32,000 nucleotides of DNA from Crocosphaera subtropica ATCC 51142 (GCF_000017845.1 NC_010547.1:180001-212000), one strand, 5' to 3'; positions 13,842 through 30,247 are shown, numbered from the stretch's first letter. A program made the numbers and translations. Notes: generated from the sequence alone by a model not told the origin.

Positions 13842-14375
13842 TCAACGAAAAGTTAAAGTATAAGTAGAGAATTGCTCACCTAGATCTTCTTCAAAGAAAT
13901 ATTCAGTGTAATATTCACCGTAAGGTGATGCACTGTTCGGACGCATAGCACAATTACAAATTTCAACAGGAATATCCCCACCCCAATACTTACCTTGATC
14001 ATTCTCAGCATAAAAAAGAATGTAACGGTTTTCAGTGGCGGCTACAGGAACAACAGATCTTGAAGGCACTTCAATCCATCCTTCAGTTGTCCAGCCATAA
14101 TCCCCCAAGTAATGAACAACTACCCAAAGCGGTTCGTTGGTGTTATTTCTAACCCAAACCTCATTAAATTCAGGATAGCGCTCTCGGTAGGTGGATGTTG
14201 AGGATCTACCTAAATTTTCCTCAAGGGTTGCTCTTATTCGCAACATTCTCACAAAAGTGGGAATCACCCTGACCGCGGCTCGATAAGGATTAGCATAAAC
14301 TGGCAGAGCTGAACTAGCCAGAAGGAAAAGCATTCCAAAAAGTGTCACACAACGAGCTATTAATCGAGTTCTCAC
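13842..14375 (-). CDS. secreted protein of unknown function (possibly DUF1036-like)
   Basis: Signal peptide MRTRLIARCVTLFGMLFLLASSALPVYA. The mature part has the WVVVHYLGDYGWTTEGWIEVP pattern. Confidence 0.55.
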   Translation of the reverse strand: MRTRLIARCVTLFGMLFLLASSALPVYANPYRAAVRVIPTFVRMLRIRATLEENLGRSSTSTYRERYPEFNEVWVRNNTNEPLWVVVHYLGDYGWTTEGWIEVPSRSVVPVAATENRYILFYAENDQGKYWGGDIPVEICNCAMRPNSASPYGEYYTEYFFEEDLGEQFSTYTLTFR

Positions 14376-14542
14376 CTTTTTATCCTCTTTCTAGAGGTTT
14401 TCTAGACTCTACCTTTACGATAACGTGAGCGCCCAACGAATTTGGATTCGTTATGTCTGAAAGAAACAGGGCAGAAAATTCTAGCTCAATACAGAAATTC
14501 TGGAGACAAGCCCTAGCTGCCGAGAAGTTAGCATTAGCAACC

Positions 14543-14806
14543 TTAAACATCTTGTATGGCTTTTTCAATTGATTCCCGAATAAACTTTTGATAGCCGATT
14601 CCGCGCTCACCAGAAGCTTTCTTGACTGCCTCGAGTAAGTCTTTTGAGAGCCTTAAGCTGATGGTTGCATCTTTGGGAGCAAACTCAAAAGTAGTCGGTG
14701 TAAAGTTTTTCTGGAAATTCTCTGGAGTGAGATACTCTGTTAAGTCTTCTGCAAGCAACTTTTCGACATCTTGGTCATTGGTCATTTTGGGGAGAGATTT
14801 GCTCAT
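14543..14806 (-). CDS. brnA: BrnA-like antitoxin
   Basis: Overlaps the 3' end of the upstream brnT. C-terminus ISLRLSKDLLEAVKKASGERGIGYQKFIRESIEKA is RHH/BrnA-like. Confidence 0.7.
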   Translation of the reverse strand: MSKSLPKMTNDQDVEKLLAEDLTEYLTPENFQKNFTPTTFEFAPKDATISLRLSKDLLEAVKKASGERGIGYQKFIRESIEKAIQDV

Positions 14807-15074
14807 ATTGTTGTGCCTCCTTCTCGTGCATATAACGAGCTGATATTGGGCGAATAAGATTGTTGCGTAGGGTAAAAGCTACAAACAAGGGTCTCCCAGA
14901 TGGCAATCGACCTACTGCCAAGAATCGGTCTTCGTCTTGGGAGTGTTTGATATCGGGAGCTACATATATCTGTGTCTGAAAGAATCCCTCTATCTCCTCT
15001 AGGGTAACACCGTGCTTCTGGCACTTGGTCTCATTTCCTTCCTCCCAATCAAACCCTTCAACAGCAATGCTCAT
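14775..15074 (-). CDS. brnT: BrnT-family (DUF497) toxin
   Basis: FDWEEGNETKCQKHGVTLEEIEGFF...LFVAFTLRNNLIRPISARYMHEKEAQQYE. Confidence 0.8.
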   Translation of the reverse strand: MSIAVEGFDWEEGNETKCQKHGVTLEEIEGFFQTQIYVAPDIKHSQDEDRFLAVGRLPSGRPLFVAFTLRNNLIRPISARYMHEKEAQQYEQISPQNDQ

Positions 15075-15123
15075 AGTATAATACTATCAAATTGTATATA
15101 CAAACGTCAATACAAAAGAGATT

Positions 15124-15514
15124 TTACTGAATTTTCCACATTATCTCATGACCTGCCCAGAGGGGAACGATTCCAGAGTTATTGAGTGAGATTTCATCAG
15201 GAATACGCTAGGTCGATTTGACCAGGGTTATCTGTTCGGTATTGCGTGGGAGTCGGTAAAAATCTAGCCCATAGAAGCTGGCAAAAGCTTCAAGCTTATC
15301 GAGAGCATCAGCACGCTCAAACGCTTCTACATATAACGCGCTTGGCGTGTAGAGCCGAATAGCATCCTGCACAGCCACAGGAACTTTCTTTATTATTGCG
15401 AGTATGGGGAGCGCTATCAGTACCCAGAAAAAACTTAGGATTACCTGATGTAGTTGCTTGGACAATAGCCTGACGATGCTCTTCCCCTTTCAATGCGGTT
15501 TTTCCATGCTTGAA
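15124..15514 (-). pseudogene. pyrC: 3' fragment of a class II dihydroorotase gene with one frameshift and one in-frame stop
   Basis: Three pieces are colinear with the E. coli-type PyrC C-terminus: [31 protein letters not shown] (frame a), [35 protein letters not shown] (frame b), then TAG at 15208-15210 followed by IPDEISLNNSGIVPLWAGHEIMWKIQ. Confidence 0.75.
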
Positions 15515-15851
15515 GTTTGGCACGAAGGTCTTCCTGACCTGGTTTGGGGGGCATCGAGGCTATCTTGGCAAATCGTTCCCGATTGCGTTCTTCCCAATAT
15601 TGACGAATTTCTGCTGCTGTTTGCAGACATTCTTGGTATTCTGCTTCAACTTCAGTACGATGAGTTTCAATGTAGGCTAAAGCTGAACAAATTTGCTTAT
15701 TGTTGAGACCGAGTTTTTCACGGATTAACTTTGGTGGATACTGAGCTTTCAGGTAATCCATTACATCATAAAGAGTGATGCGTGTACCTGTAATCGTTAG
15801 TCCACGCTCAGTACGAATAATTGAGGATTGCTCATTCAATGCTGAAATCAT
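15441..15851 (-). CDS. DUF433-domain protein (antitoxin-like), 3' end running into the pyrC remnant
   Basis: The ATG is preceded by ggag. [22 protein letters not shown] is the DUF433 signature. The last 25 or so codons overlap pyrC-derived DNA in another frame. Confidence 0.65.
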
Positions 15852-16017
15852 AGCTGTTTCTCCGCCCAACTTAATTTTATATTATCTCAAAATTAGCTAA
15901 ACGCCGAGAAGCCCCTCGCTGTACAAAGTCAGCGTCGGGTAGTTTACTTTTTGTACAGTCTTCTGTGTTTTGTTCTTCCAATGCTAAAATTGGAAAGATG
16001 TCGCAGGAGTCAGAGTA

Positions 16018-17154
16018 ATGGCAGTAACAGGAAGAAAAACACAACGTCGAAGCAGGACAAAGAAATCAGAGGAGCAATTAGAGAAAGAGCAAACTACGAC
16101 CCAAGACGCGATCGATGTAACCGCTCAAAGTGATGTAGCGACATCGCCTGATTCCGCTGATTCCAAGCAAGAAAACGATAAAGAAACGACAAAATCAACA
16201 GATACAGTAGCAAGGGTTGAGACACTTAAACCAGATCAAGTAGATTCTATAGAAGACCGAGAAGAACAAATAGCAAAACGGGCAGAATTAGAGAATATCG
16301 TCATAGAACACTCTCAGAGTTTTACTATCATTGGAAAAGCTTTGCGAGAAATCCAAGAAAAGAAACTTCATCAAATTGAAGATCCTAATAAGAGATGGGA
16401 TGTTTATGTCGACGAAACATTCGGTATTGTAAAATCTAGAGCCTATCAACTTATTGCAGGGACTGTTCTTTATGAAGTTCTCGAAGATAACTTAAAAGGA
16501 GACTATTCACTCCCCAAATCCGATACTCAACTTCGTCCTTTATACTCCCTTGTCAAAGGATGGAGAAAGGCAACAGCGAAAAACGATGTAGAAGAAAAAG
16601 AAAGGATAGAGCAGTTAATTGTTAAGCATTATAAAGACTCAATAGATGTAGCTAATCAAGAAGGAAAAGAACTAACAGAGAGTATTGTTAGAGAGGTGGT
16701 TCGCGCGTCCCAACAAAAAGAAGTTCAAGCCAGAAGCTTTTCAACTGAAGATATAGGGGCGGTGGTCGAGATAACTAAAGTAGAAGGGAATGATAACCTA
16801 CGTGGCCAGAAAGGGAATTACGGAATTATTACAGGCGTAAACAACTTCAGTGTGTCTATTGAAACAGCTATAGGAGAATACGACACCATCCCTCAACAAT
16901 GCGTAAGAAAAATGCCCGCAGATAAAGTATATCAACAAGAAACCAACGAAAAGATTAAGTCTCATATATCGAGACTTAAAACCATATACGATGCTATTCA
17001 GAGCAGTGAAGACAAAGACAAAAGACTCGCTAACTATATTGTGGGAATGACTGCTTCCTATCAAGGAACCAAGAAAACAGAATTAAACCATAAGCTACTC
17101 AAAACTATCGAGGACTATTTTGAGATCAAAGATGATCCGCAGCAACCTCAATAA
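16018..17154 (+). CDS. hypothetical DNA-binding-like protein (possible ParB/KorB-like HTH or replication-related)
   Basis: 378 aa with an acidic, low-complexity N-terminus. FTIIGKALREIQEKKLHQ...WDVYVDETFGIVKSRAYQLIAG resembles the HTH of plasmid partition/regulator proteins. This is a weak call. Confidence 0.5.
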   Translation: MAVTGRKTQRRSRTKKSEEQLEKEQTTTQDAIDVTAQSDVATSPDSADSKQENDKETTKSTDTVARVETLKPDQVDSIEDREEQIAKRAELENIVIEHSQSFTIIGKALREIQEKKLHQIEDPNKRWDVYVDETFGIVKSRAYQLIAGTVLYEVLEDNLKGDYSLPKSDTQLRPLYSLVKGWRKATAKNDVEEKERIEQLIVKHYKDSIDVANQEGKELTESIVREVVRASQQKEVQARSFSTEDIGAVVEITKVEGNDNLRGQKGNYGIITGVNNFSVSIETAIGEYDTIPQQCVRKMPADKVYQQETNEKIKSHISRLKTIYDAIQSSEDKDKRLANYIVGMTASYQGTKKTELNHKLLKTIEDYFEIKDDPQQPQ

Positions 17155-17184
17155 TTTATAACGAAAATAGTCGTTGCTGCGGAT
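17135..17184 (+). repeat. hairpin element, copy 6 (left arm encodes the last codons of 16018-17154)
   Basis: atccgcagcaACCTCAATAATTTATAACGAAAATAGTCGTtgctgcggat. The TAA stop at 17152-17154 lies inside the element. Confidence 0.85.
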
Positions 17185-17242
17185 ATCTCAAAGACTTGCT
17201 GTAAGCCGATTTCAGGCTATTTGTTACTCGTTTATCTCAGAC

Positions 17243-17250
17243 GCTAGCGC
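17243..17250 (+). promoter_or_regulatory. GCTAGCGC box (first of a tandem pair)
   Basis: cGCTAGCGCggaaaagaggattatct precedes the second box at 17268. Confidence 0.4.
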
Positions 17251-17267
17251 GGAAAAGAGGATTATCT

Positions 17268-17275
17268 GCTAGCGC
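17268..17275 (+). promoter_or_regulatory. GCTAGCGC box heading an ORF-less unit
   Basis: tGCTAGCGCaggtatgaactgaaac. Only ATG-AAC-TGA is present before the terminator. Confidence 0.5.
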
Positions 17276-17346
17276 AGGTATGAACTGAAACTTCCCCCCA
17301 CCTCGTTTGTATAAAAGGTAGTCTTGTTGGATTGCCTTTTTTTTTT
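17276..17346 (+). ncRNA. candidate small RNA (about 70 nt)
   Basis: Box, C-rich stretch cttccccccacc, hairpin aaggtagtc/ggattgcctt, then an 11-nt T-run. No ORF. Confidence 0.3.
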
Positions 17347-17348
17347 AG

Positions 17349-17398
17349 ATCCGCAGCAGTAGCTGTTTTCTATAAGAAATATAGGTGTTGCTGCGGGT
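17349..17398 (+). repeat. hairpin element, copy 7
   Basis: atccgcagcaGTAGCTGTTTTCTATAAGAAATATAGGTGTtgctgcgggt, directly after the T-run. Confidence 0.8.
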
Positions 17399-17563
17399 GA
17401 TTCAAAGACTCGTCACTAGGGGGTTACAAGGCGATAGGCGGTGGCTTTACCTCGACCTTCTTTTCGCAGGATATTCTGAGAGATCGAGGTGCTTCTGGTT
17501 CCAAGCCATGTCCGTATTGTAGTCGTATTATAGCCGAAAGGATAGCGCAAAAGAGGGTTAGCT

Positions 17564-17571
17564 GCTAGCGC
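17564..17571 (+). promoter_or_regulatory. GCTAGCGC box heading an ORF-less unit
   Basis: gatagcgcaaaagagggttagctGCTAGCGCagggtttgactgaaagc. The 35 nt upstream repeat the tandem arrangement at 17243-17275. Confidence 0.5.
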
Positions 17572-17660
17572 AGGGTTTGACTGAAAGCCCCAATTGGCTT
17601 TGCAGAACTGCGTTCATAGCTGACCTCGATAGGAACCTCTTTATGAGGTTTCTATTTTTT
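17572..17660 (+). ncRNA. candidate small RNA (about 90 nt)
   Basis: No ORF. Internal hairpin aaagcc-ccaatt-ggcttt, and terminal hairpin aggaacctc/gaggtttct plus T-run. Confidence 0.3.
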
Positions 17661-17744
17661 CTATAAACTCGACACGTAAACTAACCCTAGTTCTAGCTAC
17701 GGTTTTTTAAATAATTAGCTAGAACTAGAGTAGTAACGAGATAG

Positions 17745-17752
17745 GCTAGCGC
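17745..17752 (+). promoter_or_regulatory. GCTAGCGC box
   Basis: gGCTAGCGCcagtatggttgaactgagc; 36 nt to ATG 17789. Confidence 0.55.
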
Positions 17753-17788
17753 CAGTATGGTTGAACTGAGCATAGCGAGGAACCAACC

Positions 17789-18334
17789 ATGCAATCATTA
17801 GAAATTTTACTCGATTTATTAGCCATCATTTTTGTTTTATACGCCACCTACGGGCATAGAAACGGAGATAATTTAGTGTTAGCGGGCGATATCAGTAGCC
17901 TTGAATTGATGACACAGATCGCCTTTGGGTCAGGTCAAACTCAAGAAGAAGAGGACGATTTGCCCCCTTGGGATGTCGATGAATTAATCGATAGTCTCAC
18001 GCAGGTTGAGCCAGAGCCTTCTACGAATACTCTTGATGAAACCACTGAGGGTACACAGAGTCCTGAACTCAAAGTGCCCGAAGAGGGTCTGATTCCCTTC
18101 GATGTCGATGAACCCGATATCCCCAGTCGCAACGAGGTATTCAACGACTACCCTGATTTCGATGTTACTCAGATTACCGCAAAGAAAGCCTGGAAAGCAG
18201 CCAAGGCGCTAGGATTACCTTACAAGAATCCAGACAAAAGCCGCATCAAGGTAACTGTTCTAAGACAAAACATCGAAGCGTATCTTAGAGAAAATCCTAG
18301 TCAATTTTCCGATGTCCTCCCTTTCGTTGGATAA
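17789..18334 (+). CDS. membrane-anchored, highly acidic protein
   Basis: N-terminal hydrophobic helix LEILLDLLAIIFVLYATY, followed by D/E/P-rich repeats (PPWDVDELID, IPFDVDEPDIP). Confidence 0.6.
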   Translation: MQSLEILLDLLAIIFVLYATYGHRNGDNLVLAGDISSLELMTQIAFGSGQTQEEEDDLPPWDVDELIDSLTQVEPEPSTNTLDETTEGTQSPELKVPEEGLIPFDVDEPDIPSRNEVFNDYPDFDVTQITAKKAWKAAKALGLPYKNPDKSRIKVTVLRQNIEAYLRENPSQFSDVLPFVG

Positions 18335-18384
18335 TCAAGGAGGGGGCTGACTCCCCTCTCTGCTCACCTTACCCCATAGTAATT

Positions 18385-18684
18385 ATGAAAACTCAAACCG
18401 AACCACAACAACGAACCTACCAAGCCAATAGCCTGATCATCAACACGGTAGAAACCAACGATAATCAACTGGAAGTTTATCTCTGTTACTTGGACGGGTT
18501 TTCCATTCGCCAAATAAACAATATTAATGGCCTAGGTGCTTTACTCGGATTGGAGGGGGAACCAGAAAACTCCTTTGAGCCGTTCATCGTTCCACAGCAC
18601 CGAATTAGAGATATCATCGACACTTTCTTTGTCTATTCAAAGCAGGTAGTAGAGTTAGTCAACAGAGATTTAGACCAAGATTAA
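18385..18684 (+). CDS. hypothetical protein
   Basis: 99-aa ORF in the same transcription unit as 17789-18334. No terminator lies between them. Confidence 0.55.
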   Translation: MKTQTEPQQRTYQANSLIINTVETNDNQLEVYLCYLDGFSIRQINNINGLGALLGLEGEPENSFEPFIVPQHRIRDIIDTFFVYSKQVVELVNRDLDQD

Positions 18685-18699
18685 GTCAGGAGAAAACTC

Positions 18700-18900
18700 A
18701 TGGAACCAAAACCAAACAGAGAAAAAGCCATACTTTGGCTATCTGACGATGACTTAGAACTTATCGGCATTGACCCTGCCTCTATCTCAGATGAATTATT
18801 CGAAGCGATTGCAGAAGAACTCAAGGAATTTATCAACGAAGGCTTTCAACACGCCCTGATTCAAAGTGTTGAGTCAGCAAAAGTCAACCAGGAATCATGA
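18700..18900 (+). CDS. small highly acidic protein
   Basis: 66 aa, with about 16 D/E versus 5 K/R by my count. An aggag SD lies 8 nt upstream and the terminator follows. Confidence 0.55.
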   Translation: MEPKPNREKAILWLSDDDLELIGIDPASISDELFEAIAEELKEFINEGFQHALIQSVESAKVNQES

Positions 18901-18909
18901 ACTATTGTC

Positions 18910-18932
18910 GAGGCTCCGTGCCTCTTTTTTTT
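18910..18932 (+). terminator. rho-independent terminator
   Basis: Stem gaggc/gcctc followed by an 8-nt T-run. Confidence 0.7.
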
Positions 18933-18960
18933 GTTCTATAGGGAACTTCTTTATGTCTGT

Positions 18961-18968
18961 GCTAGCGC
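18961..18968 (+). promoter_or_regulatory. GCTAGCGC box
   Basis: tGCTAGCGCacggtagcc; 36 nt to ATG 19005. Confidence 0.55.
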
Positions 18969-19004
18969 ACGGTAGCCATGAACATAATCTCGAAAGGAGA
19001 CTTC

Positions 19005-19535
19005 ATGTTATTCGCTGTGTTAACACAAAAGAACTGGGCAAAAGCCAGAATTCGCTCGATTACTAACTATGATACTGTGACTAAAACCCTTCCTAAATAT
19101 TCGTTTGACGATGTGGATATCGCTGTGATCGGAAAAGTGTCGATGAATGAAGATGAGTGGCTTGGTCTTGAGGTAGGACTCGGCACTATATATCGATATT
19201 GTCAAAAAGGGCTACCTGCGGAGGCTTACGACGAAGAGGGGAACATTACCTTACTATACGAGCCACCATCTCGGTCAGCCGATATTGGAGACTTGATTCA
19301 ATTTGAAGATGGTCGAGTGTACCGAGTTGAACACGATGGCTATAAACTACTCCCCCATCAGCCAATTGTCCGATTATCCGAGAGTTTAATCGATAGACGA
19401 TTAGTAGCTAATTTCCGCAGTATACCGAATTGGCATACTCATCGGGTATTTGAACATCAAGTCCTGCAAAGAAGTGATTTAGTGGTTGAAAAATGTGTGG
19501 ACATCGCACAGCACATTTACTACCGAATCCGATAA
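19005..19535 (+). CDS. hypothetical protein
   Basis: ORF-track 18978 start replaced by the in-frame ATG with an aaaggag SD 7 nt upstream and box-consistent spacing. Confidence 0.6.
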   Translation: MLFAVLTQKNWAKARIRSITNYDTVTKTLPKYSFDDVDIAVIGKVSMNEDEWLGLEVGLGTIYRYCQKGLPAEAYDEEGNITLLYEPPSRSADIGDLIQFEDGRVYRVEHDGYKLLPHQPIVRLSESLIDRRLVANFRSIPNWHTHRVFEHQVLQRSDLVVEKCVDIAQHIYYRIR

Positions 19536-19551
19536 GGTATCATCGCCGAAA

Positions 19552-19583
19552 AGAGAGACCGTTTAGGTTTCTCTTTTTCTTTT
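19552..19583 (+). terminator. rho-independent terminator
   Basis: Stem agagagacc/ggtttctct followed by a T-rich run. Confidence 0.65.
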
Positions 19584-19609
19584 GAACCTGTCGTAAATTG
19601 CAAAGCATC

Positions 19610-19634
19610 GTAGGGTGGGCATGGCCCACCCTAC
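19610..19634. repeat. perfect 11-bp-stem hairpin GTAGGGTGGGC-atg-GCCCACCCTAC
   Basis: Perfect palindrome. A related copy, aGGGTGGGtatgtCCCACCtt, lies at 11327-11347. Confidence 0.7.
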
Positions 19635-19743
19635 AGGTAGCACTCACTCAGCGTATTCGACGCCTTTTACCTTGCCATTTTCGGCGCCGACCCTGCCTCC
19701 TTGATGAAGCAAGCAGTGTTTGGAGTGGAAAAGCTGACGACAA

Positions 19744-19856
19744 TGCACGATGTATGCACGGGTAATGCACACAAAAGCACGATAAAAACGCTTCTTCACT
19801 AGCGTGAAAGCACAAAAACGTGCGCTTATAGTGCTGAAACGTGACTATTAAGTGCA
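19744..19856. repeat. phased GCAC/GTGC iteron-like array (period 10-11 bp)
   Basis: (T/A)GCAC at 19744, 19755, 19766 and 19776. AGCAC at 19809, then GTGC/GTGA at 19820, 19831, 19841 and 19852. Confidence 0.65.
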
Positions 19857-19887
19857 TCTTTTGGTTAAGTAAAAATACTCAAAAAGC

Positions 19888-20052
19888 ATGAAAAATATTT
19901 TATGTCTTGTCAGGCTACACGATTGGAAAATAATCCGTGGGAATACGCCAGAGTTAAAAGACGCCTACATTTGCAGAGAGTGCCAAAGATGTGGAAGATT
20001 CGAGGTCAAATCCTACGCATCAAACTTCAAATGGCAAACACTAATGAAATAA
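19888..20052 (+). CDS. small zinc-ribbon-like protein (54 aa, below ORF-track cutoff)
   Basis: MKNILCLVRLHDW...AYICRECQRCGRFEVKSY...LMK. The stop is at 20050-20052, just before the terminator at 20059-20090. This fits the cassette layout better than the overlapping 85-aa ORF 19902-20159. Confidence 0.35.
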   Translation: MKNILCLVRLHDWKIIRGNTPELKDAYICRECQRCGRFEVKSYASNFKWQTLMK

Positions 20053-20058
20053 GCATCA

Positions 20059-20090
20059 ACAGGGATTGTCTATTAAGAATCCTGTTTTTT
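20059..20090 (+). terminator. rho-independent terminator
   Basis: Stem cag(g)gatt/aatcctg followed by a 6-nt T-run abutting the next box. Confidence 0.7.
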
Positions 20091-20098
20091 GCTAGCGC
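20091..20098 (+). promoter_or_regulatory. GCTAGCGC box
   Basis: tGCTAGCGCaagggataaag; 29 nt to ATG 20128. Confidence 0.5.
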
Positions 20099-20292: not shown

Positions 20293-20323
20293 GGGATTTA
20301 TCTTTGAATCCCTTTCTTTTTTT
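20293..20323 (+). terminator. rho-independent terminator overlapping the 3' end of the convergent polymerase gene
   Basis: Stem gggatt/aatccc followed by tttcttttttt. Confidence 0.55.
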
Positions 20324-23300
20324 CAAACTGTTGTTGTACGAAATTTGTTATTCCTTGAATATAAGCCGTTGCTTTTTCCCTGAAAGCTGGAAAGTCTGGA
20401 GAGTCGTAGTCAGGGCGCTTAGCCGTCACTGTGGGTGACTGGGATAAAATCGCGGAGACATCATTCCGACTATTGTTATCGAGAAAGGCCAGTCTAGCAA
20501 CGGCTGTATCTAATTCCTTACCTTGTAGATCACCGTGGTAGTGATTCTTTAATTTCTCAGTATACTCATTGTAACGAGCTTTGAAAAAGTTTCTCAGATT
20601 ATCCATTTCAAGCTCTTTTGTGTATTCGGGGTCAGTTTTGACTTTATTCTGGTCAAGCTGCCAAGGATACCGCAAGGAGTCAGGTTCGACCTTCAGGCTA
20701 CCTGTGTTAGACGGAGGTGTATCAAGGTTGGCATAAACCGTAAAAGATTCTTTGACCCCTTGCACCCCTTTTTGACCAATGAGTTTCCGAAATTGTGTAG
20801 CACTTTGCTTATCCAACTCGCCGATAGGTTTTCCGTCGAGACTAACTCGGAATTGTTGTCGATGTCGTCCGTCTTTGAAGGGGGTAATCTTGAGGTTAGC
20901 CTCTTTGCCGGTAAACACGGTGTCTTTGTACTGATTGTCTCTAACTTTACCGATTTTAAGCTCCGTGCCGTCTTTAAGAGTGGCGATCGCCTTGGCGGGG
21001 GGATCGGGGACGAATTCAGCTTTGAAAATCGTATCAATAGGATATCCAGGGGATTCTTGTTGAAGGGGACCAAGAAACTGACCTTCGACAGCGACTCCCC
21101 GCATCAGCTTAGTCCCATTCTTACTGGGGATTTCCTGCATCACCATTTCACATTCAAGCGTCTGACCCTGAAGGTCTTGTCCTTTGAGTTTGTTGGTATC
21201 GTACTGTAACCCCACTACTTGGAGTTGGTTGAGTTGAAGTTCTTTGAGTTGGGCTAAGGACTCTTCAGGAAATACTCGGAACGCAGCTAGAGCCTTCTTC
21301 GTAGCAAATTCACTCCGAGAGTGAGAGACGTGCCACATTCCTTGTGCAATCTGTTTTTTCTCCGCAGAATCATATTTATCTTGAATCGCTCTGGTGTAAC
21401 TATCAAGCGATCGCCATGCCGCTTCAACTTGACTTTCGGTGATACCAGGGACGATTAAAGGTTCTGTTTTGAAAGGTTTAATCGTCTCGCCAGGCGTAGT
21501 AATGTCGTTGATAGCGACCGCCCCTAACAGCTTCTTTTCACCATCAATATGAGCGTAAGCAACCTCACGGTTAGGAATATCTAAATCGCCGGGTCGAGGG
21601 CTGATACTAACCGTAAGTTCCTGGTCAATGGCAATAGAAGGATCTCTCAAATCAGAGCGTGTAATAGGAATCTGCTGATCTTTCCAAGGCAAACGTAAAT
21701 GAGTCTGAGCCAGTTCAGGATTGTTATTATAGATATTACTCATTTCCATGGCGTGTTTCAAACGGTCATTGAACTCGCCTTGAATTTCTTTGGCAATGTC
21801 GAGGTATTGGTCATCGGGCTTAGGAAAGAGATCACGGAAGGTATGAGTGAGGCGAGGTGTTATACTCAGCGTGCTTTCCATGAATTCAGTATTGACGGCT
21901 CGAAGCATGGTATCAATAGGAGAATAAGTCGTAACCATAGCAGGACGATCTAGAAACACATCTTGATCCTTCCTATCAGGCATAAACCCAACTTTGACGC
22001 AGTTACTCGCTGCTTTAATCACAGCGAATTTATCCATATTGGGTCGAGATGCTGATTTAGGACCATCAACAGCGACTTGAAGTTCGTTACCTAAGTCAGC
22101 AACGGCTCCTAACTGAATTGACCGAATCGTTGCTAATGCTCCATCAATATGACCAGAGTGAAGTTGCTTGACATCAGCTAACTGTGCTACGCGTTTCATT
22201 TGGCTAGAGTAGGTCTTAGGAATATTGGTTCCTTTTTTCTCAGCCTTGGCTAGAACTCCTCGATAATAGTAAGCAGCTTTCTTTACCATTTCTGGTTTTT
22301 CTTCATGAGGACGGGCATAGGTATCGTTGTAAATAGCAACGGACTTCATTATCTGATTAGCAATCAGGCCAATTTGATTGTCGGCACATTGAATAGCGAT
22401 TTTCTCGAAAGAACCTTTATAGGGGACTTTATCGCGCTTAACGATATCAGGGTAACGGTTTTGAGGTAAAAGTTTTTCTTTGATTTCGGCGGCTAGGGCA
22501 GGGTATTTATCAGCCCGTTCATAAGCTAGGCGATCGCCGTCAAAGTCAGCTTGGAGGTGTTTGGCTGCGGTAGTTGGATTGATATGAATTGACCCGTTCA
22601 ACCGCATGAGTTCTGGGATATGCTTGTTTTTCAGTATAATAACACCATTAGAATTGACTAAAGGCGATCGCGTAACAATAACCTCCTTGCCATCAGGGAG
22701 GTTAGGGGCACAGATTTCATCTTCGCCTAGCTTATTACTCGGCTGTGCCAAGGCTGATTTGATACGAACCCCACCAGAAAAACCTAATTCCTTCCATCGA
22801 GATTGAACAAAACCTTTAAGTTGGTCAACGACATAGGGATGTTCTAAGAGTTGACCGTGATTCTCCAGGTCAGTTTTTAGTAGCTTATACAGAGCTTCTT
22901 CGCTAGAAAGACGTGCCGGTTCTTCTTCAAACGCATCGAATAATGGCAAGAATTCTTTTTCTTCCTCAGTGGCTGTGGCTTGAAGCTCTTGCTTATCCTC
23001 GTAATACTTAATGAAGGCGTTTGCTAACGCAGCGGGACTATCGAGAGAATCTCGTAATTCCCGTGCTTTCTTTTTGACAATCGGCAAAATGTCCTGCTCG
23101 ACCCCTTTGGGGTAATTGACCAAGACTTGGACCCCCAACTTTTGTTTACCATATTCGGCTTCTGTCTTAAGTCCGAGTCCAAGGTCTAACTTATAGCTTC
23201 CTGGATCGATGGATTGCTCGCCTTTCCTACCCTTGAACATACTAGAAGCCAAAATAAGGTCATACTCACCGAGATTCAGGTCTTTAACCACATTGGCATC

Positions 23301-23894
23301 GGCTTCGACTTTGATGCCTCTGTCGTTTCGGGTTGACCCCAGGTCATCGAGGCGAATATCAGGGGCTAATGTTCCTTTGGCAATACGAAACGCGTCATTT
23401 CCTTCTTGGGGTCTAATCCCTAGGCGAAACTGAATCGGAGTATTATCTTTGCCTGTCAATTCTTGGGCTAATTCAAAGCTCATTTTGCCATAGCAATCTC
23501 CAACGAGATTTTTAGCAAATTCTTTGTCATGGAGAACCCCACCACTGTTACCAGTCTCATCGTCAATCACTAAAACTCGTGCTTGTTTGATATCTAATCG
23601 TTTATTAACTGGTGTAAAAGGCAAAGACCCATAGGCCGCGCGATCGCTTGGCTTAGGAAACAATTGTTCCCCGACTATCTCATTAGAGTAATAGAGGCGC
23701 TTACCTGAAGAGAATTGAAGAGATCGATCAGGGCGAGGGGCTAAATCATTCTCTTTTACTGTTTCTGGGTCCATGTGACCAATTTGGAACTTAGCCTCTG
23801 GAAAGAGATACTCGGCAATACAGTTGTCGATTTTCTCATCAATATTAAGAGGTTGACCGGTTTTCGTGTCAAAATGAGTTAATTCTATGCCCAT
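20298..23894 (-). CDS. single-subunit two-barrel RNA polymerase homologue (YonO / eukaryotic-type RdRP-like, QDE-1/RDR family)
   Basis: 1198-aa ORF with colinear motifs: GDCYGKMSFELAQEL (aa 132-146), IQFRLG...AKGTL (154-176), VIVTRSPLVNSNGVIILK, HINPTTAAKHLQADFDGDRLAY (DFDGD = aa 450-454, nt 22533-22547) and LQVAVDGPKSA. These correspond to the DPBB catalytic motifs of RNAP beta-prime (NADFDGD) and to the RdRP family motifs DG.G.IS, Q.R..G.KG, V.V.R.P, D.DGD and AVD..K.G. Confidence 0.7.
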   Translation of the reverse strand: MGIELTHFDTKTGQPLNIDEKIDNCIAEYLFPEAKFQIGHMDPETVKENDLAPRPDRSLQFSSGKRLYYSNEIVGEQLFPKPSDRAAYGSLPFTPVNKRLDIKQARVLVIDDETGNSGGVLHDKEFAKNLVGDCYGKMSFELAQELTGKDNTPIQFRLGIRPQEGNDAFRIAKGTLAPDIRLDDLGSTRNDRGIKVEADANVVKDLNLGEYDLILASSMFKGRKGEQSIDPGSYKLDLGLGLKTEAEYGKQKLGVQVLVNYPKGVEQDILPIVKKKARELRDSLDSPAALANAFIKYYEDKQELQATATEEEKEFLPLFDAFEEEPARLSSEEALYKLLKTDLENHGQLLEHPYVVDQLKGFVQSRWKELGFSGGVRIKSALAQPSNKLGEDEICAPNLPDGKEVIVTRSPLVNSNGVIILKNKHIPELMRLNGSIHINPTTAAKHLQADFDGDRLAYERADKYPALAAEIKEKLLPQNRYPDIVKRDKVPYKGSFEKIAIQCADNQIGLIANQIMKSVAIYNDTYARPHEEKPEMVKKAAYYYRGVLAKAEKKGTNIPKTYSSQMKRVAQLADVKQLHSGHIDGALATIRSIQLGAVADLGNELQVAVDGPKSASRPNMDKFAVIKAASNCVKVGFMPDRKDQDVFLDRPAMVTTYSPIDTMLRAVNTEFMESTLSITPRLTHTFRDLFPKPDDQYLDIAKEIQGEFNDRLKHAMEMSNIYNNNPELAQTHLRLPWKDQQIPITRSDLRDPSIAIDQELTVSISPRPGDLDIPNREVAYAHIDGEKKLLGAVAINDITTPGETIKPFKTEPLIVPGITESQVEAAWRSLDSYTRAIQDKYDSAEKKQIAQGMWHVSHSRSEFATKKALAAFRVFPEESLAQLKELQLNQLQVVGLQYDTNKLKGQDLQGQTLECEMVMQEIPSKNGTKLMRGVAVEGQFLGPLQQESPGYPIDTIFKAEFVPDPPAKAIATLKDGTELKIGKVRDNQYKDTVFTGKEANLKITPFKDGRHRQQFRVSLDGKPIGELDKQSATQFRKLIGQKGVQGVKESFTVYANLDTPPSNTGSLKVEPDSLRYPWQLDQNKVKTDPEYTKELEMDNLRNFFKARYNEYTEKLKNHYHGDLQGKELDTAVARLAFLDNNSRNDVSAILSQSPTVTAKRPDYDSPDFPAFREKATAYIQGITNFVQQQFEKKKGIQR

Positions 23895-23942: not shown

Positions 23943-24203
23943 ATGACTATGTTGATACCGCCTATCGAAATCTCAGCTAATTACGACAAGCAGGGGAATA
24001 TGTATCCTGATAAGCGGGCTAAATTATTAAAGAAAGGTTGGACAGAAGAAGAGATTAGCCAAGCCGAAGATAGAGCCAGGGAAGCTTTAGAAGAAGTAAA
24101 TGAAGCTAGAAGTAAAATCAGAGACCGAGGTATTGCTAGGTCTGGACTTGATATCAGCGAACAACTCAGTGAAGGATATATCGACTTAGAGGACTTGATT
24201 TAA
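23943..24203 (+). CDS. hypothetical protein, divergent from the polymerase gene
   Basis: 86-aa ORF with charged helical content, followed by hairpin agtctac/gtagact at 24204-24222. Confidence 0.5.
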   Translation: MTMLIPPIEISANYDKQGNMYPDKRAKLLKKGWTEEEISQAEDRAREALEEVNEARSKIRDRGIARSGLDISEQLSEGYIDLEDLI

Positions 24204-24312: not shown

Positions 24313-24726
24313 CTATTTTGGGGCTGTCTTTCTCCCGTCAATCCTTAGCCAATAACAGGAGCTAGACTCAGAAGGACATACGACACCGCTAGGAAGAAGG
24401 TTGAGTCCGATGTAAATTCCAGTGGAAAAACTACCAACCACAATAACGGCTGCCCAAGACCAATTATTGATAAAGCTGGCCCAAGTCCGAACTTTTTTCC
24501 AAAATACTTTACTGCGTTCCCGTTCGACTTGAATACGCTTCGCCTCAACTTCGACGTACTGTTGATTTTGCTCTAAGGCAAGTCGGAGTCGTTCTCCGAT
24601 GATTCCGTCGATGAGTTGAGTAAGTTCGTCGGGGTTGTACTCGTTGTTATTTGATACGTCTCCAGGTAGTCGTCCACCAACTCCGAGACGTTGATGTCCT
24701 CCCCCTCCTGTGTCGCTTGGTTCCAA
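24313..24726 (-). CDS. coiled-coil plus TM protein, or frameshifted C-terminus of 24573-25109
   Basis: ELTQLIDGIIGERLRLALEQNQQYVEVEAKRIQVERERSKVFWKK, followed by TM helix WSWAAVIVVGSFSTGIYIGL. The first 50 or so codons overlap the upstream ORF in another frame. Confidence 0.45.
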   Translation of the reverse strand: MEPSDTGGGGHQRLGVGGRLPGDVSNNNEYNPDELTQLIDGIIGERLRLALEQNQQYVEVEAKRIQVERERSKVFWKKVRTWASFINNWSWAAVIVVGSFSTGIYIGLNLLPSGVVCPSESSSCYWLRIDGRKTAPK

Positions 24727-25109
24727 TATTGTTGGAAATTCTCTCTAAGTTGCCCTGATTTGATCATCTGAGCCAGTCGTTTAACGGTCACTTGCGGAAT
24801 CACTTGGCTCATAATTTGAGCTTGGCGTTCTCCTAGCTGCAATCCTGTTTCTACGGCTTGTTGGTCTAACTGAGCCGTAATGCTACTATCTACACTGGCA
24901 GGGTACTTTTGCTTGAAGTAGTTAGCCATGTCTTCGTAGGAACTTGCGGCACCTGAATCAAAGAGCTTTATAGCTTCTTCGATGCGATCGCGTTCTTTCT
25001 GAGTAAAGTTCTTTTTATTGGGAGAGAGACCGATAGCTTTTATGGTTTCTTTGAAGTCAGAATCATCTAATGAGAACTCTTTTTTTAACTGGTCTTTGGT
25101 ATAGCTCAT
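24573..25109 (-). CDS. hypothetical protein in the parM operon
   Basis: 178-aa ORF lying 21 nt downstream of 25131-25553. Confidence 0.55.
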   Translation of the reverse strand: MSYTKDQLKKEFSLDDSDFKETIKAIGLSPNKKNFTQKERDRIEEAIKLFDSGAASSYEDMANYFKQKYPASVDSSITAQLDQQAVETGLQLGERQAQIMSQVIPQVTVKRLAQMIKSGQLRENFQQYWNQATQEGEDINVSELVDDYLETYQITTSTTPTNLLNSSTESSENDSDLP

Positions 25110-25130: not shown

Positions 25131-25553
25131 TTAAAACATTGAATCGAGTAAAGAATCTTCTTCGTCGTAATCACGACAATCTTCATCCAAGTTAAGGTCA
25201 TCTTCAACCTCTTCTGCTGCCGACTCAGTAAAGCTATGTCGGTTAGGGTAGAGAGGAGTTGGAGGAGAAGATACAGTCGGTTGCATCGTTTTAGCTCCGA
25301 ATCGATATCGGAGTAGTTCGATGTGATGTTCGAGGAGATAAACAGAGCGTGTCACGGCATTAGCGACTTCTTCTGAAGAACCTCCTGCCCATTTCACCGC
25401 AAATGGCAGCCAAAACGCTTCTAAAGCATTCATAACGAAATCCTTTTTAGGAACCACTAAGTCTTGCTTTGCTTTGTTGTAGTAGTAAATCAAAGGGGCG
25501 TAGCGACTATCTTCTGTGGGTTGGTGTCGAAATTGGAAATTAAGCCGATTCAC
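25131..25553 (-). CDS. possible ParR-like centromere-binding adaptor
   Basis: Position is immediately after and overlapping the parM-like gene. Short N-terminal beta-strand-like RLNFQF and an acidic C-terminal tail (EEVEDDLNLDEDCRDYDEEDSLLDSMF). No direct family recognition. Confidence 0.35.
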   Translation of the reverse strand: MNRLNFQFRHQPTEDSRYAPLIYYYNKAKQDLVVPKKDFVMNALEAFWLPFAVKWAGGSSEEVANAVTRSVYLLEHHIELLRYRFGAKTMQPTVSSPPTPLYPNRHSFTESAAEEVEDDLNLDEDCRDYDEEDSLLDSMF

Positions 25554-26694
25554 GAGTTACCACCTCCTTAAGCCGTGGTAGGGGCTTCTTCAGTAGTCTA
25601 TAAAACAAGCCATATACATCCGCTAATCGAGAGGCTAAGTAATTCTTCGACACTTCATTACCGAATGTTTGCACCACTCGCTTTTCAAGGGATTGTGACC
25701 AATTAATTTGAGCCCCATAAGACTTTAGTAAGGTAGTGAGATTACGTTTAAAATATTTTGCTGTACCACCACCCAGTAAAATCTCATCGATTTCTAAATG
25801 AGGGGGGATTTGCTGACTAATCCAATTAGTCAACGTCGCCACATATTCTTGCTGAGAGTCTTCGATAGCATCTTTAATCTCTTTTTTTTCTGCTTCTCTG
25901 AGTTCGGCTCTTTGACTACGGGCTAATCGTTCTAAGGTGCGATCGCTAATTGATTTCCCTGTGCAGATGGCAGGGATTAAAACGTCTTCAGATTGCCCTG
26001 ATGTAAACGTTTTTATCTTAGTAATCATTTGGGAAAACCCGAAGTCACTGGTTAGCCCTATGGTCAATTCACCGCGTTCTACCACTAAGATTGAGGCATT
26101 GCGATAGCCGATCATCAGAACAACTAAGTTAGTTTCAGTAACCCGCTTCATCGGCTTACCCTTAGAAGCAACTCGTCCTCTGGCGAATAAACCCCCGCCT
26201 TCAGGAAGAGCATCGAATGCCTGTAGTGTTACATGGTAATGCTGACCTCGATATTCAAAGCTCTGTAAGGCCGATACTAAAACCGATTTGAGTTTATCCT
26301 TATCTTTAAATTCAGACCAAGGGAGTAACACACCTAAGTCTAAACTGAAAGTTGTACCTAATCCCTTGATTTCTGCCACTGCGCCAACCATAGCCAAGGT
26401 CAATGGAATAGCCGAATCAATTTTTAAAGAATTCAAGCAATGAATTGTACTGAATTGGCGCTTAGCCAGGAAGCCTACCGCAAAATAAGTATCATTGAGA
26501 TTGACCCAGGATGAGTCTTGAGGACTGGGATTGCCGACTTTGTATTTCTCATAATTGGCAATAGCAATATTAGGGACTTCTACGACGTGAGGGTCTAAGA
26601 GTAGAAGTTCGGGTTTAATATAACTATTGCTAGTGGTATAAATAGCGCGTCCCAAACTCGATCCGAAGTCTAAGGCCATGGTCAAGTCTGCCAT
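25540..26694 (-). CDS. parM: ParM/Alp-like actin-fold plasmid segregation ATPase
   Basis: Start moved to the ATG preceded by gaaggagaagg. MALDFGSSLGRAIY (phosphate-1), VVLMIGYRNASILVVERG and ILLGGGTAKYF (adenosine motif) fit the actin/ParM fold. Confidence 0.7.
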   Translation of the reverse strand: MADLTMALDFGSSLGRAIYTTSNSYIKPELLLLDPHVVEVPNIAIANYEKYKVGNPSPQDSSWVNLNDTYFAVGFLAKRQFSTIHCLNSLKIDSAIPLTLAMVGAVAEIKGLGTTFSLDLGVLLPWSEFKDKDKLKSVLVSALQSFEYRGQHYHVTLQAFDALPEGGGLFARGRVASKGKPMKRVTETNLVVLMIGYRNASILVVERGELTIGLTSDFGFSQMITKIKTFTSGQSEDVLIPAICTGKSISDRTLERLARSQRAELREAEKKEIKDAIEDSQQEYVATLTNWISQQIPPHLEIDEILLGGGTAKYFKRNLTTLLKSYGAQINWSQSLEKRVVQTFGNEVSKNYLASRLADVYGLFYRLLKKPLPRLKEVVTRESA

Positions 26695-26771
26695 TTTTTC
26701 CTTCTCCTTCAGTTCTCTTTTTTTTACTATACACACCAATTGCTGAAATTAACGATTTTGGACTGGCGGAT

Positions 26772-26862
26772 GTGCACGGCTTTGCACGTTTTACGAACTC
26801 TTACACACTTTACCGTCTCCTAAAACGTGCTTGTAACGTGCATCATTGTGCGGTTTCAGTGC
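26772..26862. promoter_or_regulatory. parC-like centromere/operator: phased GCAC/GTGC repeats upstream of parM
   Basis: GCAC at 26774 and 26784. GTGC at 26827, 26838, 26848 and 26859 (period 10-11 bp). Lies 80-170 nt upstream of the parM start. Confidence 0.5.
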
Positions 26863-26878
26863 TTCATGTCAAGGTCGA

Positions 26879-26911
26879 TTCGGCGGGTAGTCGACGAAGC
26901 AAGCAGTGTTT
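26879..26911 (+). repeat. conserved segment TTCGGCG...GAAGCAAGCAGTGTTT (second copy at 19679-19721); oriT/nic or operator candidate
   Basis: The 16-mer GAAGCAAGCAGTGTTT is identical at 19706-19721 and 26896-26911, with similar flanks. This copy is 48 nt upstream of mobC. Confidence 0.45.
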
Positions 26912-26958
26912 AGTGAGACTAATGAAATATAATCGAAGAAAAAGGATAATCCAAGGTT

Positions 26959-27255
26959 ATGGAACAGCAAGAAATAAGACTCCGAGTACCCAAAGATGAA
27001 TATCAAATAATCAAGAAAGAAGCTAAATCAAGAGGACTATCTGTGAGCGATTTTTTTAGAATACTGATCAGCAAAAAACAATTTCCAAAGAAAAACAGTC
27101 CTAGAGAAGCAAGAGAATTATACCTATACCTCGCTTCAATTCAAGAAACGGTAGAAGACATGGTACAAGGAAGAATTGAACCTAATCTAGAAATGTTACT
27201 AGAGCAGATCAAAGCATTACGCGGTGATTGTATTGGGATGGAGAAAGTAGAGTGA
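26959..27255 (+). CDS. mobC: MobC-family relaxosome accessory protein (RHH)
   Basis: IRLRVPKDEYQIIKKEAKSRGLSVSDFFRILI is the MobC-type RHH pattern. Its stop overlaps the relaxase start (GTGA). Confidence 0.7.
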   Translation: MEQQEIRLRVPKDEYQIIKKEAKSRGLSVSDFFRILISKKQFPKKNSPREARELYLYLASIQETVEDMVQGRIEPNLEMLLEQIKALRGDCIGMEKVE

Positions 27256-28292
27256 TTGGTAAAGTAACTCACGGAAGAGATGCCTACAGCTTGTTAAGGT
27301 ATGTTGCCGACAAAGAAGGCGCGTATCAAGTCGGTGGTAATGTCGCCTTTAACGACCCGGTGAATATTGCAAGGGAATTTAGAAAAGGACAAGCATTACA
27401 CCGAACAATCAATCGATACGTCTGGCATACGTCATTGTCAACGGCTAAACACGAGAACCTTGATGATAAAACGTGGAAAGCCATCGCTAAAGATTACCTG
27501 CGAGAAATGGGCTTTAATAAACATCAGTATGTTGTTTATCGACACACTGACGCAGATCACAATCACATTCACATCGTGGCTAATCGAATCAACATTATTG
27601 ATGGAAGCGCTGTTGACGATGCGTGGTCTAAATATCGTACTGAGGCAGCGATACGTAAGCTAGAATCTGCTTACAATCTTCAAGTGGTAGAACCAAGTCA
27701 TGGAAAAGAACGAAAATCTCCAACCACTGGAGAACAGCGGATGCAAGCAAGAACGCAAACACCTCTGCCACGAGTCATTATTCAAGACGCTTTAGACAAG
27801 ATTCTGTCTACCATTACCTCACCCGAAGACCTAAAAAATAAGCTTAAAACCGAGGGGATTGAAACAAGATTTAGAAAACGCAAAGACAAAACGATTAGTG
27901 GGATATCCTTCAGCTATAACGGGATCGCTTTTGGAGGGGGGAAATTAGGAAAGCGGTATAGTTGGACTCGCATTCAACAGCAACTAAGGGAAAATCAAGC
28001 AGATTCAGCGACTCAAAAGAAACACCAGTTAAATAAGCTATATCAAAGCTTGGCCTCACAAACGACACAAGTAGAGCCTAAATTAAGGGATATTATTATT
28101 GCTGGCAAACTACTGAAAAAAGGATACTCCAGTAGATCCGTCAAAGCAGTTCTGACTCAGAGTCCGATCATCCAAAGCTATAAGCAATCAGAAAACTACC
28201 AAGAAGATAAAGCCTTACGATATATTGATAAGGTGTACAAAAGTGCCCAGCGAAGAATAACAAAGAACAGTGTCCAGGAGGTAGTGAGATGA
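27252..28292 (+). CDS. MobA/VirD2-family conjugative relaxase
   Basis: GTG start gives MIGKVTHGRDAYSLLRYVADKEG (catalytic Tyr region). HTDADHNHIHIVANRI is the histidine-triad motif III of PF03432-type relaxases. Confidence 0.85.
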   Translation: MIGKVTHGRDAYSLLRYVADKEGAYQVGGNVAFNDPVNIAREFRKGQALHRTINRYVWHTSLSTAKHENLDDKTWKAIAKDYLREMGFNKHQYVVYRHTDADHNHIHIVANRINIIDGSAVDDAWSKYRTEAAIRKLESAYNLQVVEPSHGKERKSPTTGEQRMQARTQTPLPRVIIQDALDKILSTITSPEDLKNKLKTEGIETRFRKRKDKTISGISFSYNGIAFGGGKLGKRYSWTRIQQQLRENQADSATQKKHQLNKLYQSLASQTTQVEPKLRDIIIAGKLLKKGYSSRSVKAVLTQSPIIQSYKQSENYQEDKALRYIDKVYKSAQRRITKNSVQEVVR

Positions 28293-29932: not shown

Positions 29933-30247
29933 ATGAAAGAGGAAGAGCAAATCATTGTCAACCGAATGGTGGGGAAAGTACCGTTGATTGGCTCGTTCAG
30001 CCCTATACAGTTTTTCGCCGCCATTGCAGGTTTTTTATTAGGCTACTTAGCCCACGCAAATACAGGAAATATGATTGTCGGAGTTGGGGCTGCTTTATGG
30101 GTCTTTTTTACCATCGTTTTAGTCCTGGGTAATCACCACTGGCAGTATCTCAATAAATACCGCAAAGCTACCCCATGGTCGAGAGGGCGTAGGCTCTTTA
30201 AAAATCCTTTAGAATCGAGGAAGCCCAAAAATGGGACAAAAAACTAA
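29933..30247 (+). CDS. VirB3/TrbD-like small membrane protein
   Basis: 104 aa with two TM helices (IQFFAAIAGFLLGYL, IVGVGAALWVFFTIVLVLG). Immediately upstream of and overlapping the VirB4-like gene. Confidence 0.4.
   Translation: MKEEEQIIVNRMVGKVPLIGSFSPIQFFAAIAGFLLGYLAHANTGNMIVGVGAALWVFFTIVLVLGNHHWQYLNKYRKATPWSRGRRLFKNPLESRKPKNGTKN

Follow-up and report, generated by a model that had tools for sequence, protein, structure and literature searches.

A single-chain two-barrel polymerase homolog in a plasmid-type neighborhood of Crocosphaera subtropica ATCC 51142, with a possible primase-like role

The stretch of Crocosphaera subtropica (Cyanothece) ATCC 51142 considered here (NC_010547.1, 180001-212000; the window, 32,000 nucleotides (nt) in full, from whose first letter all positions are counted) contains the gene cce_4975, whose product is, on the evidence of structural modeling, a homolog of the single-chain two-barrel polymerases. 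Upstream of it lie several small genes, a ParM-type partition ATPase and a relaxase, and an array of boxes with the sequence GCTAGCGC runs toward it from the other side. The open reading frame (ORF) specifies 1198 amino acids (aa) identical to the cce_4975 protein and has the length and limits given in a first-pass annotation of this DNA, which left out the strand, here found to be minus. Since the N-terminal signature MxxxLxHFDTK is conserved, the start codon is correct. The same annotation described the gene as plasmid-borne, which does not hold: the replicon is what we take to be the linear chromosome of the strain, of 429,701 bp. The neighbor-numbered genes cce_5168 and cce_5169 have been placed on that chromosome, which has a predicted DnaA-type origin at 373.5 kb (PMC4674748). 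A megablast search of plasmids gave no match. The surroundings of cce_4975 are nevertheless plasmid-like despite the chromosomal site, with the relaxase, a coupling-protein-like ATPase and ParM.

Five motifs quoted in the first-pass annotation are all present in cce_4975, in the order in which they were listed: GDCYGKMSFELA (aa 132-143), IQFRLG...AKGTL (aa 154-176), VIVTRSPLVNSNG (aa 405-417), HINPTTAAKHLQADFDGDRLAY (aa 437-458) and LQVAVDGPKSA (aa 605-615). Eight residues have been reported as invariant in every two-barrel polymerase, namely an aspartate, an arginine and a lysine in the first barrel and an arginine, a proline and the DxDxD triad in the second (Ruprich-Robert and Thuriaux 2010; PMC2919709). 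D133, R157, K173, R409, P411, D450, D452 and D454 of cce_4975 are invariant columns in an alignment of 52 homologs (32-66% identity), the equivalence of these catalytic residues to those of QDE-1 being set by motif and order. As all eight are invariant across these homologs, the occurrence of the five motifs is not due to chance, and we predict that the enzyme is very probably catalytically intact and active.

An AlphaFold model of cce_4975 built on the 52 homologs has a mean predicted local distance difference test score (pLDDT) of 86.5 and a predicted template-modeling score of 0.75. When it was compared with the PDB using Foldseek, the top 22 matches (expectation value, E, 4.5e-12 to 5e-7) were QDE-1, RDR2 and phage single-chain RNA polymerases, followed by proteins of the β’ or Rpb1 type. 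QDE-1 of Neurospora stands first (7y7t, 2j7n; E 4.5e-12, probability 1.0) together with RDR2 of plants, then the RNA polymerases P74 gp62 and P32 gp64 of Thermus phages (about 3e-8), and lower down the Pol IV subunit NRPD1 (5e-4 to 1e-3) and the bacterial β’ subunit and yeast Rpb1 (about 1e-3 to 4e-3). The alignments with QDE-1 and RDR2 span some 900-1050 columns, with template-modeling (TM) scores of only 0.33-0.44 and a root-mean-square deviation of about 10 Å. A viral structure library returned proteins annotated as "RNA dependent RNA polymerase" along with crAss-like phage proteins. Among the PHROGs, cce_4975 matches phrog_34895, of no assigned function (4e-19; aa 73-520), phrog_4291, annotated as RNA-dependent RNA polymerase (RdRP; 4.7e-5; aa 378-456, in the second barrel), and, marginally, phrog_8308, the YonO family (E 0.086); as a control, YonO itself matches phrog_8308 with E 0.

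The remaining sequence searches returned little. Pfam, NCBIfam and PDB sequence searches with the single cce_4975 sequence gave no meaningful match; neither did a PDB search with the 52-sequence profile, which failed to retrieve QDE-1. PF05183 does not match cce_4975 at E up to 10, and an hhalign comparison of the family profile with YonO is not significant (probability 0.1%). A Pfam scan of 38 family members gave RNA_pol_Rpb1_2 in seven and PF05183 in one (E 0.007), all sub-threshold. The fold assignment thus comes from structure comparison, the sequence profiles being nearly silent. Of the checks proposed in the first-pass annotation, those against PF05183 and the YonO profiles failed, and the AlphaFold and Foldseek comparison came out as anticipated, with QDE-1, RDR2 and single-chain phage polymerases ahead of β’. 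Taken with the conserved catalytic residues and the RdRP-annotated PHROG matches, this ranking supports the identification of cce_4975 as a single-chain two-barrel (double-psi β-barrel) polymerase homolog of the QDE-1/RdRP-like branch, the structure being decisive here. The claim that the C-terminal half resembles nothing recognized was also borne out for some 470 residues with a confidently predicted fold: modeled alone, aa 715-1198 reach a pLDDT of 89, and a Foldseek search of the PDB with these 484 residues found no solved relative (best match E 0.08, probability 0.06).

Comparison with the better-known members of this superfamily brings out both the likeness and the distance. Like cce_4975, QDE-1 and RDR2 are single chains in which a barrel bearing the lysine and arginine precedes the DxDGD barrel, and all share the R-S-P “gate”. 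They differ from it in that sequence identity is only 11-13% and the TM-scores are low; in the silence of PF05183; in the spacing of the motifs quoted in the first-pass annotation, with about 10 more residues between QFRLG and AKG in cce_4975; in the C-terminal 470 aa, which are unique to cce_4975; and in the bacterial, plasmid-type context, which lacks partners of RNA interference (RNAi). YonO of the Bacillus prophage SPbeta is likewise a single-chain two-barrel protein of a bacterial mobile element, and the literature groups the cyanobacterial proteins as “YonO-like”. It is, however, a phage-encoded protein of 839 aa that transcribes one late operon, whereas cce_4975, at 1198 aa, shows linkage with ParM and relaxase genes; by its marginal profile match and its non-phage context, cce_4975 falls outside the YonO family in the strict sense. 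The Thermus phage proteins P74 gp62 and P32 gp64, crAss-like phage proteins, and “RdRP” proteins of Lactococcus 1706-like and Arthrobacter phages are structural matches with E of 3e-8 to 1e-13; they give weak tblastn and PHROG matches around the DFDGD barrel of cce_4975 and share no synteny with it. Phage enzymes of the gp64 and gp66 type serve the transcription of phage genes. The closest relative by sequence is thus phrog_34895, and the closest by structure are QDE-1 and RDR2.

The family is sizable. A word-indexed search recovered more than 200 relatives and an exhaustive search 562 representatives at E up to 0.001, and a scan of one genome per species yielded 80 loci, in which every named organism is cyanobacterial and some loci come from metagenome-assembled genomes (MAGs) labeled “uncultured bacterium”. 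Some of these loci sit on multi-megabase chromosomes, a few of which carry several copies. In the collections searched, the family is restricted to cyanobacteria. In PLSDB, a homolog occurs on 99 plasmids, 43 of them typed as conjugative, 16 as mobilizable and 40 as non-mobilizable. The cyanobacterial proteins were recognized in 2010 as one of five YonO-like groups whose role “remains an enigma” (PMC2919709), and the YonO paper of 2017 mentions them again; cce_4975 has the traits of the 2010 group, being cyanobacterial and having the bipartite active-site domain with the eight invariant residues. The first-pass annotation was right that no characterized example exists, but the family had been described bioinformatically in both of those papers. 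Relative to the literature searched, the fold and the existence of the family were already known, and what is new is its role in the plasmid backbone, its fusion repertoire and the unique C-terminal half.

The gene neighborhood (Table 1) ties the polymerase to plasmid partition and transfer. A ParM gene lies on the same strand 1.6-5.2 kb upstream of the polymerase in 43 of the 56 loci whose upstream sequence extends to 5 kb or more. A relaxase occurs within 10 kb in 34 of the 44 loci of at least 20 kb, as judged with three query relaxases (the MobA/VirD2 type of the window, where the distance is 3.3 kb, a MobV type and the type of pCC7120beta). That relaxases of different types are linked to the polymerase argues for a functional association over simple common ancestry. 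The window, a 66%-identical MAG relative and Nostocales plasmids (Tolypothrix, Nostoc) have the same gene order: relaxase, ParM, small gene or genes, small opposite-strand gene, polymerase. The family belongs to the backbone by which cyanobacterial plasmids and integrated plasmid-like elements are maintained and transferred, and this constant setting suggests RNA synthesis on the DNA of plasmids.

Table 1. Features of the window, with the polymerase gene and its parts first
Feature	Position	Strand	Remarks
Polymerase ORF cce_4975	20298..23894	-	AlphaFold model; best Foldseek matches QDE-1 and RDR2
First barrel (β-like), about aa 130-260	23115..23507	-	Invariant D133 (GDCYG), R157 (QFRLG), K173 (AKGT)
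Second barrel (β’-like), about aa 377-460	22515..22766	-	R409-S410-P411; predicted metal-binding D450-F-D452-G-D454 at nt 22533-22547
LQVAVDGPKSA motif, end of long helix	22050..22082	-	A608, D610, G611, K613 invariant
C-terminal region, aa 732-1198	20301..21701	-	Small β domains, helical linker, helical tail; confidently predicted fold
Small divergent ORF, 86 aa, directly upstream of polymerase	23943..24203	+	tblastn matches in 12 loci
Two overlapping ORFs, 137 and 178 aa, different frames, between ParM pair and polymerase	24313..25109	-	Conserved
140-aa ORF directly after ParM	25131..25553	-	Position as for a ParR-type adaptor
ParM/actin-like partition ATPase	25540..26739	-	Pfam ALP_N E 0.0018; ParM/StbA annotation in related plasmids
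Divergent intergenic region, ParM versus NikA/relaxase	26740..26958		Sigma-70-like promoter toward ParM (26872 to 26845); GCACG/CGTGC repeats
NikA-like accessory protein and MobA/VirD2-type relaxase	26959..28292	+	Pfam NikA-like 1.2e-7, Relaxase 2e-33
HerA/DUF87-type ATPase, type IV coupling protein-like, runs off the window	30213..32000	+	Pfam DUF87 2e-5, weak T4SS-DNA_transf
RNase H-like gene	3459..4229	-	RVT_3 8.8e-25, RNase_H 4.9e-7
19 GCTAGCGC boxes	180..20098	+	Most lie behind a terminator hairpin and have a start codon 28-42 nt downstream; array convergent with polymerase gene

Several of the intervening genes recur with the polymerase. A small opposite-strand gene occupies the position of the 86-aa ORF in other clades, and an unrelated 73-aa gene of this kind, from the Nostocales locus L001, was found in 45 loci. 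The overlapping 137-aa and 178-aa ORFs, which could be one frameshifted gene or two real genes, each give tblastn matches in the same 12 related loci, and in Nostocales plasmids a DUF6753 gene stands in their place. The 140-aa ORF is, by its position, a putative ParR-type adaptor, and the intergenic region between ParM and the NikA-like gene is a candidate origin of transfer (oriT), partition site, or both. A homolog of the coupling-like ATPase in locus L083 has 930 aa and a weak TrwB_AAD_bind match and follows the same four small genes downstream of the relaxase. No phage structural genes were recognized around cce_4975, and PADLOC found no match for the polymerase or nine of its neighbors. 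The RNase H that the first-pass annotation called nearby is in fact 16 kb away. On three metagenome contigs of about 11 kb (L088, L089 and L090), a 1196-aa homolog is accompanied by two toxin-antitoxin pairs (PemK and ParE/ParD) and an nSTAND-pentapeptide protein, with neither ParM nor a relaxase. These contigs were considered as complete mini-plasmids in which the polymerase would be the only replication candidate, an idea given up as unproven: they have no terminal or circular overlap, they share end points, and L089 lies inside L088.

Some further features of the window and of related plasmids are recorded here in their own right. The window contains toxin-antitoxin pairs and a transposase: two BrnT toxin genes (2113-2644, followed by an ORF, and 14543-15074, paired with a CopG/BrnA antitoxin), a HicB-like antitoxin (10312-10788) and a DDE transposase (12219-13418, minus strand) in a patch low in guanine plus cytosine (GC; 0.34 versus 0.41; 11000-14000) where GC skew is negative. 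The skew shows no switch in the window. Nostocales plasmids have iteron-like 39-bp tandem repeats with the palindromic core TTTGGGAACCAATGGTTCCC; on the downstream side of the polymerase gene, the distance to them is a few kb in L001 (17300-17417) and L002 (19017-19173) and about 8.5 kb in L024 (22071-22227). Each locus has 3-5 exact copies of the seed word besides variants, with a single extra copy at 20099 in L001 and at 21912 in L002; the repeats are a candidate replication origin or partition site.

The domain fusions of longer homologs offer a second line of contextual evidence. In some homologs the polymerase is fused to DUF3854, DUF3991, RNase H or N6-methylase domains. DUF3854 and DUF3991 are presumably Toprim-related, and one source labels a DUF3854 protein “DNA primase”. 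Further partners are SLOG/YpsA (three times), DUF4326 (twice), NADAR, RVT_3 and a superfamily 1 (SF1) helicase. In pCC7120beta (L095, 9001-16746), the polymerase domain stands at the head of a protein of 2581 aa, whose gene has the relaxase gene just upstream, separated from it by a small methyltransferase gene. In the conjugative Gloeothece plasmid pP742402 (L096, 7001-15302), the domain likewise comes first in a protein of about 2800 aa, of which at least 2767 aa fall in the stretch; about aa 2188-2273 form an RNase H domain, and ssb lies about 1.1 kb upstream of the gene. Most of the length of both giants is without a Pfam match. The multidomain homologs range from 1500 to 3300 aa; cce_4975 itself has no extra domain recognized by Pfam or by structure search. 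The “polyvalent” proteins that travel with transferred DNA typically contain primase and helicase modules; the paper describing them does not include a two-barrel polymerase among their modules and reports them as scarce in cyanobacteria (Iyer et al. 2017; PMC5512222). The fusion partners point to early DNA processing and to action on incoming or replicating DNA.

We propose, with a probability of roughly 0.4, that cce_4975 serves plasmid establishment or replication as a primase-like RNA polymerase. The single-chain two-barrel polymerase would make RNA on the DNA of its own element, with primer-independent initiation on single-stranded DNA; this DNA would be the strand that the relaxase delivers or that of an opened replication origin. 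The RNA products would serve as primers for host DNA polymerases. Trimming of the RNA-DNA hybrid would fall to an RNase H activity, encoded by a separate gene here but part of the polymerase protein in some relatives. The enzyme would then be a functional counterpart, in a different fold, of the TraC, Sog and RepB’ primases. The analysis shows the fold, the conserved active site, the distribution of the family, the gene neighborhood and the domain fusions; that the template is DNA, that the product acts as a primer and that the protein may pass to the recipient we infer. A role of this kind has a precedent in the fold, because QDE-1 starts RNA de novo on single-stranded DNA, aided by RPA (PMC9508822). 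Toprim and primase-polymerase families were not detected among the scanned ORFs of the window, and we count the lack of a rival primase among them in favor of this proposal. The likeness to RP4 TraC, R64 Sog, RSF1010 RepB’ and the polyvalent proteins lies in the adjacency to relaxases, the position at the head of giant multidomain proteins and the polyvalent-type fusions. These three primases have, however, Toprim or archaeo-eukaryotic primase folds unrelated to the two-barrel fold, and Pfam finds neither a Toprim nor a primase-polymerase domain in cce_4975, DUF3854 and DUF3991 occurring as extras in some homologs. By this analogy we propose that cce_4975 may work like a plasmid primase while belonging to neither primase fold.

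A number of observations weigh against a primase-like role. So far as is known, the characterized prokaryotic and phage single-chain two-barrel enzymes, such as YonO, are all transcriptases and not primases; crAss gp66 and P23-45 gp64 are transcriptases as well. Where Toprim-related partners are fused, the primase function could lie in them and not in the barrels. Some loci lack both ParM and a relaxase, the 40 plasmids typed as non-mobilizable make up a large part of the 99 in PLSDB, and a 51.6-kb plasmid with a homolog also encodes a VapE-domain protein, perhaps its own replication protein. An ssb gene is found near the polymerase in two loci and a stand-alone RNase H in one, which makes both rare, and the copy studied here resides on a chromosome whose predicted DnaA-type origin lies elsewhere. 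A search of the literature found no paper on cce_4975 and no functional study of any member of the family.

Best placed among the alternatives, although we regard it as doubtful, is that cce_4975 is an element-specific transcriptase which recognizes GCTAGCGC as a short promoter and transcribes the small-gene array, in the manner of YonO of SPbeta or of the virion polymerases of N4 and crAss-like phages; were the protein to pass into the recipient, the single strand transferred there might serve directly as its template. The known bacterial and phage relatives being transcriptases, this idea has the same precedent that tells against a primase. The box itself is real, with 19 copies on the plus strand of the window against none on the minus strand and about 0.2 expected per strand. 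Most copies are preceded by a hairpin and a T-run, and in about 15 of the 19 an ATG follows 28-42 nt downstream, so that the box marks the starts of transcription units and looks like a promoter. As the first-pass annotation had observed, the region of the polymerase gene is free of it: there is no copy on either strand between 20099 and 32000. The same box, on the strand opposite to the polymerase gene, occurs in a 97%-identical relative (11:1) and in the 66%-identical one (4:0). The 51.6-kb plasmid of Phormidium yuhuli (L094), which has a distant 878-aa homolog, carries a 13-nt box of its own, ACCCTACCGGATT, in four exact copies 27-32 nt before the starts of small genes (34736, 36181, 40232 and 41205, all on the minus strand), as part of a long array of genes that run in one direction, SLOG and DUF1273 genes among them. 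The box genes of the window also aim at the putative oriT; should the relaxase genes be the last to enter, as inferred from systems of the RP4 and R64 type, these genes would have the strand that is transferred as template.

Other observations weigh against this idea. Many boxes are followed by a TAnnnT-like hexamer, which would suit a host sigma-70 promoter with a box-binding regulator, and the box genes end in intrinsic terminators of the host type. The box co-occurs equally well with other clade-specific genes, for example those at 16018-17154 and 17789-18334, and its frequency was surveyed on loci that carry the polymerase. A crude search for exact 8- and 10-mers detected nothing like this upstream motif in the 10-kb flanks of about 20 other loci, such k-mer searches being mostly negative or returning longer duplicated sequences. 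The co-occurrence of box and polymerase proposed at the outset therefore stands for the 97% and 66% relatives only; the distant plasmid has a different box and the roughly 20 other loci none. The polymerase may read the GCTAGCGC boxes, but this is no established trait of the family. The second hypothesis of the first-pass annotation, by which the enzyme would act together with RNase H on DNA that is single-stranded or transferred, has the better comparative support, because of the relaxase linkage and the fusions to Toprim-related, RNase H and helicase domains.

The box array has some details of its own. G is enriched at positions 10 and 18 counted from the start of the box, and GAC(C) occurs about 10 nt past the box at many sites. 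A DUF488-N3a gene (8513-8878) begins 30 nt downstream of a box. About 630 nt of non-coding DNA at 17134-17788 contain, besides three boxes, a direct repeat of 42 nt with copies at 17249 and 17545 and a large hairpin, GATCCGCAGCAAC...GTTGCTGCGGATC, at each of 17134 and 17348; these features may represent box-driven non-coding RNAs. The words CCGCAGCA and TGCTGCGG occur eight times each in the window.

It is unlikely that the polymerase is instead a vegetative replication initiator, an equivalent of Rep proteins that, with no part played by conjugation, would synthesize a primer transcript of the ColE1 or T7 kind at a fixed origin. The tight linkage to the ParM partition gene, the occurrence on non-mobilizable plasmids and at relaxase-free loci, the 39-bp repeats a few kb away in Nostocales plasmids, and the RNase H fusions, which recall the processing of the ColE1 primer, would all accord with such a function. 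Yet the window shows no iterons and no tandem repeats, the contigs of about 11 kb that resemble minimal replicons show no circularity, and several copies of the gene can coexist in one chromosome. The idea overlaps heavily with the primase-like role and differs from it only in the timing of action. We think it very unlikely that the enzyme is an RNA-templated RNA polymerase as in eukaryotic RNAi, which would turn plasmid or foreign transcripts into double-stranded RNA for copy-number control, incompatibility or defense: the idea was raised in the 2010 review (PMC2919709), QDE-1 and RDR2, which head the structural matches, are enzymes of RNAi, and the R-S-P and AVDxPK motifs resemble those of eukaryotic RdRPs, but no dicer, argonaute or other RNA-silencing partner was recognized in the neighborhood, where PADLOC is silent, the fusion partners (Toprim-related, helicase, methylase, RNase H) act on DNA or RNA-DNA hybrids, and QDE-1 uses DNA templates too.

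A more far-reaching version of the primase-like role, improbable in its full form, joins it to the box array. Here a QDE-1-like enzyme, made in the donor and possibly co-transferred, would be the “first enzyme” on incoming single-stranded DNA, both priming the complementary strand and transcribing the box-marked leading-region genes from the transferred strand. It would be a counterpart of the N4 virion polymerase and the first case of a primase-like role for this fold in bacteria, and the family might be the closest prokaryotic relative of the eukaryotic RNAi polymerases. The AVDxPK comparison with the latter is based on the eukaryotic RdRP motif AVDFPK.

Single-chain two-barrel polymerases are regarded as relics of an ancestor shared by all cellular RNA polymerases and the RNAi polymerases, and to our knowledge very few of them have been characterized. 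The existence of the protein will not surprise the specialist. What the present analysis contributes is that the cyanobacterial branch, an enigma since 2010, is now placed in the transfer and partition backbone of plasmids, with a confident model and a list of fusions, and these context data make a fifteen-year-old question directly testable. Should the enzyme prove to act as a primase or to transcribe early, the folds known for plasmid primases would be joined by a third, unrelated one, and a compact orthogonal pair of polymerase and promoter might become available for cyanobacterial engineering.

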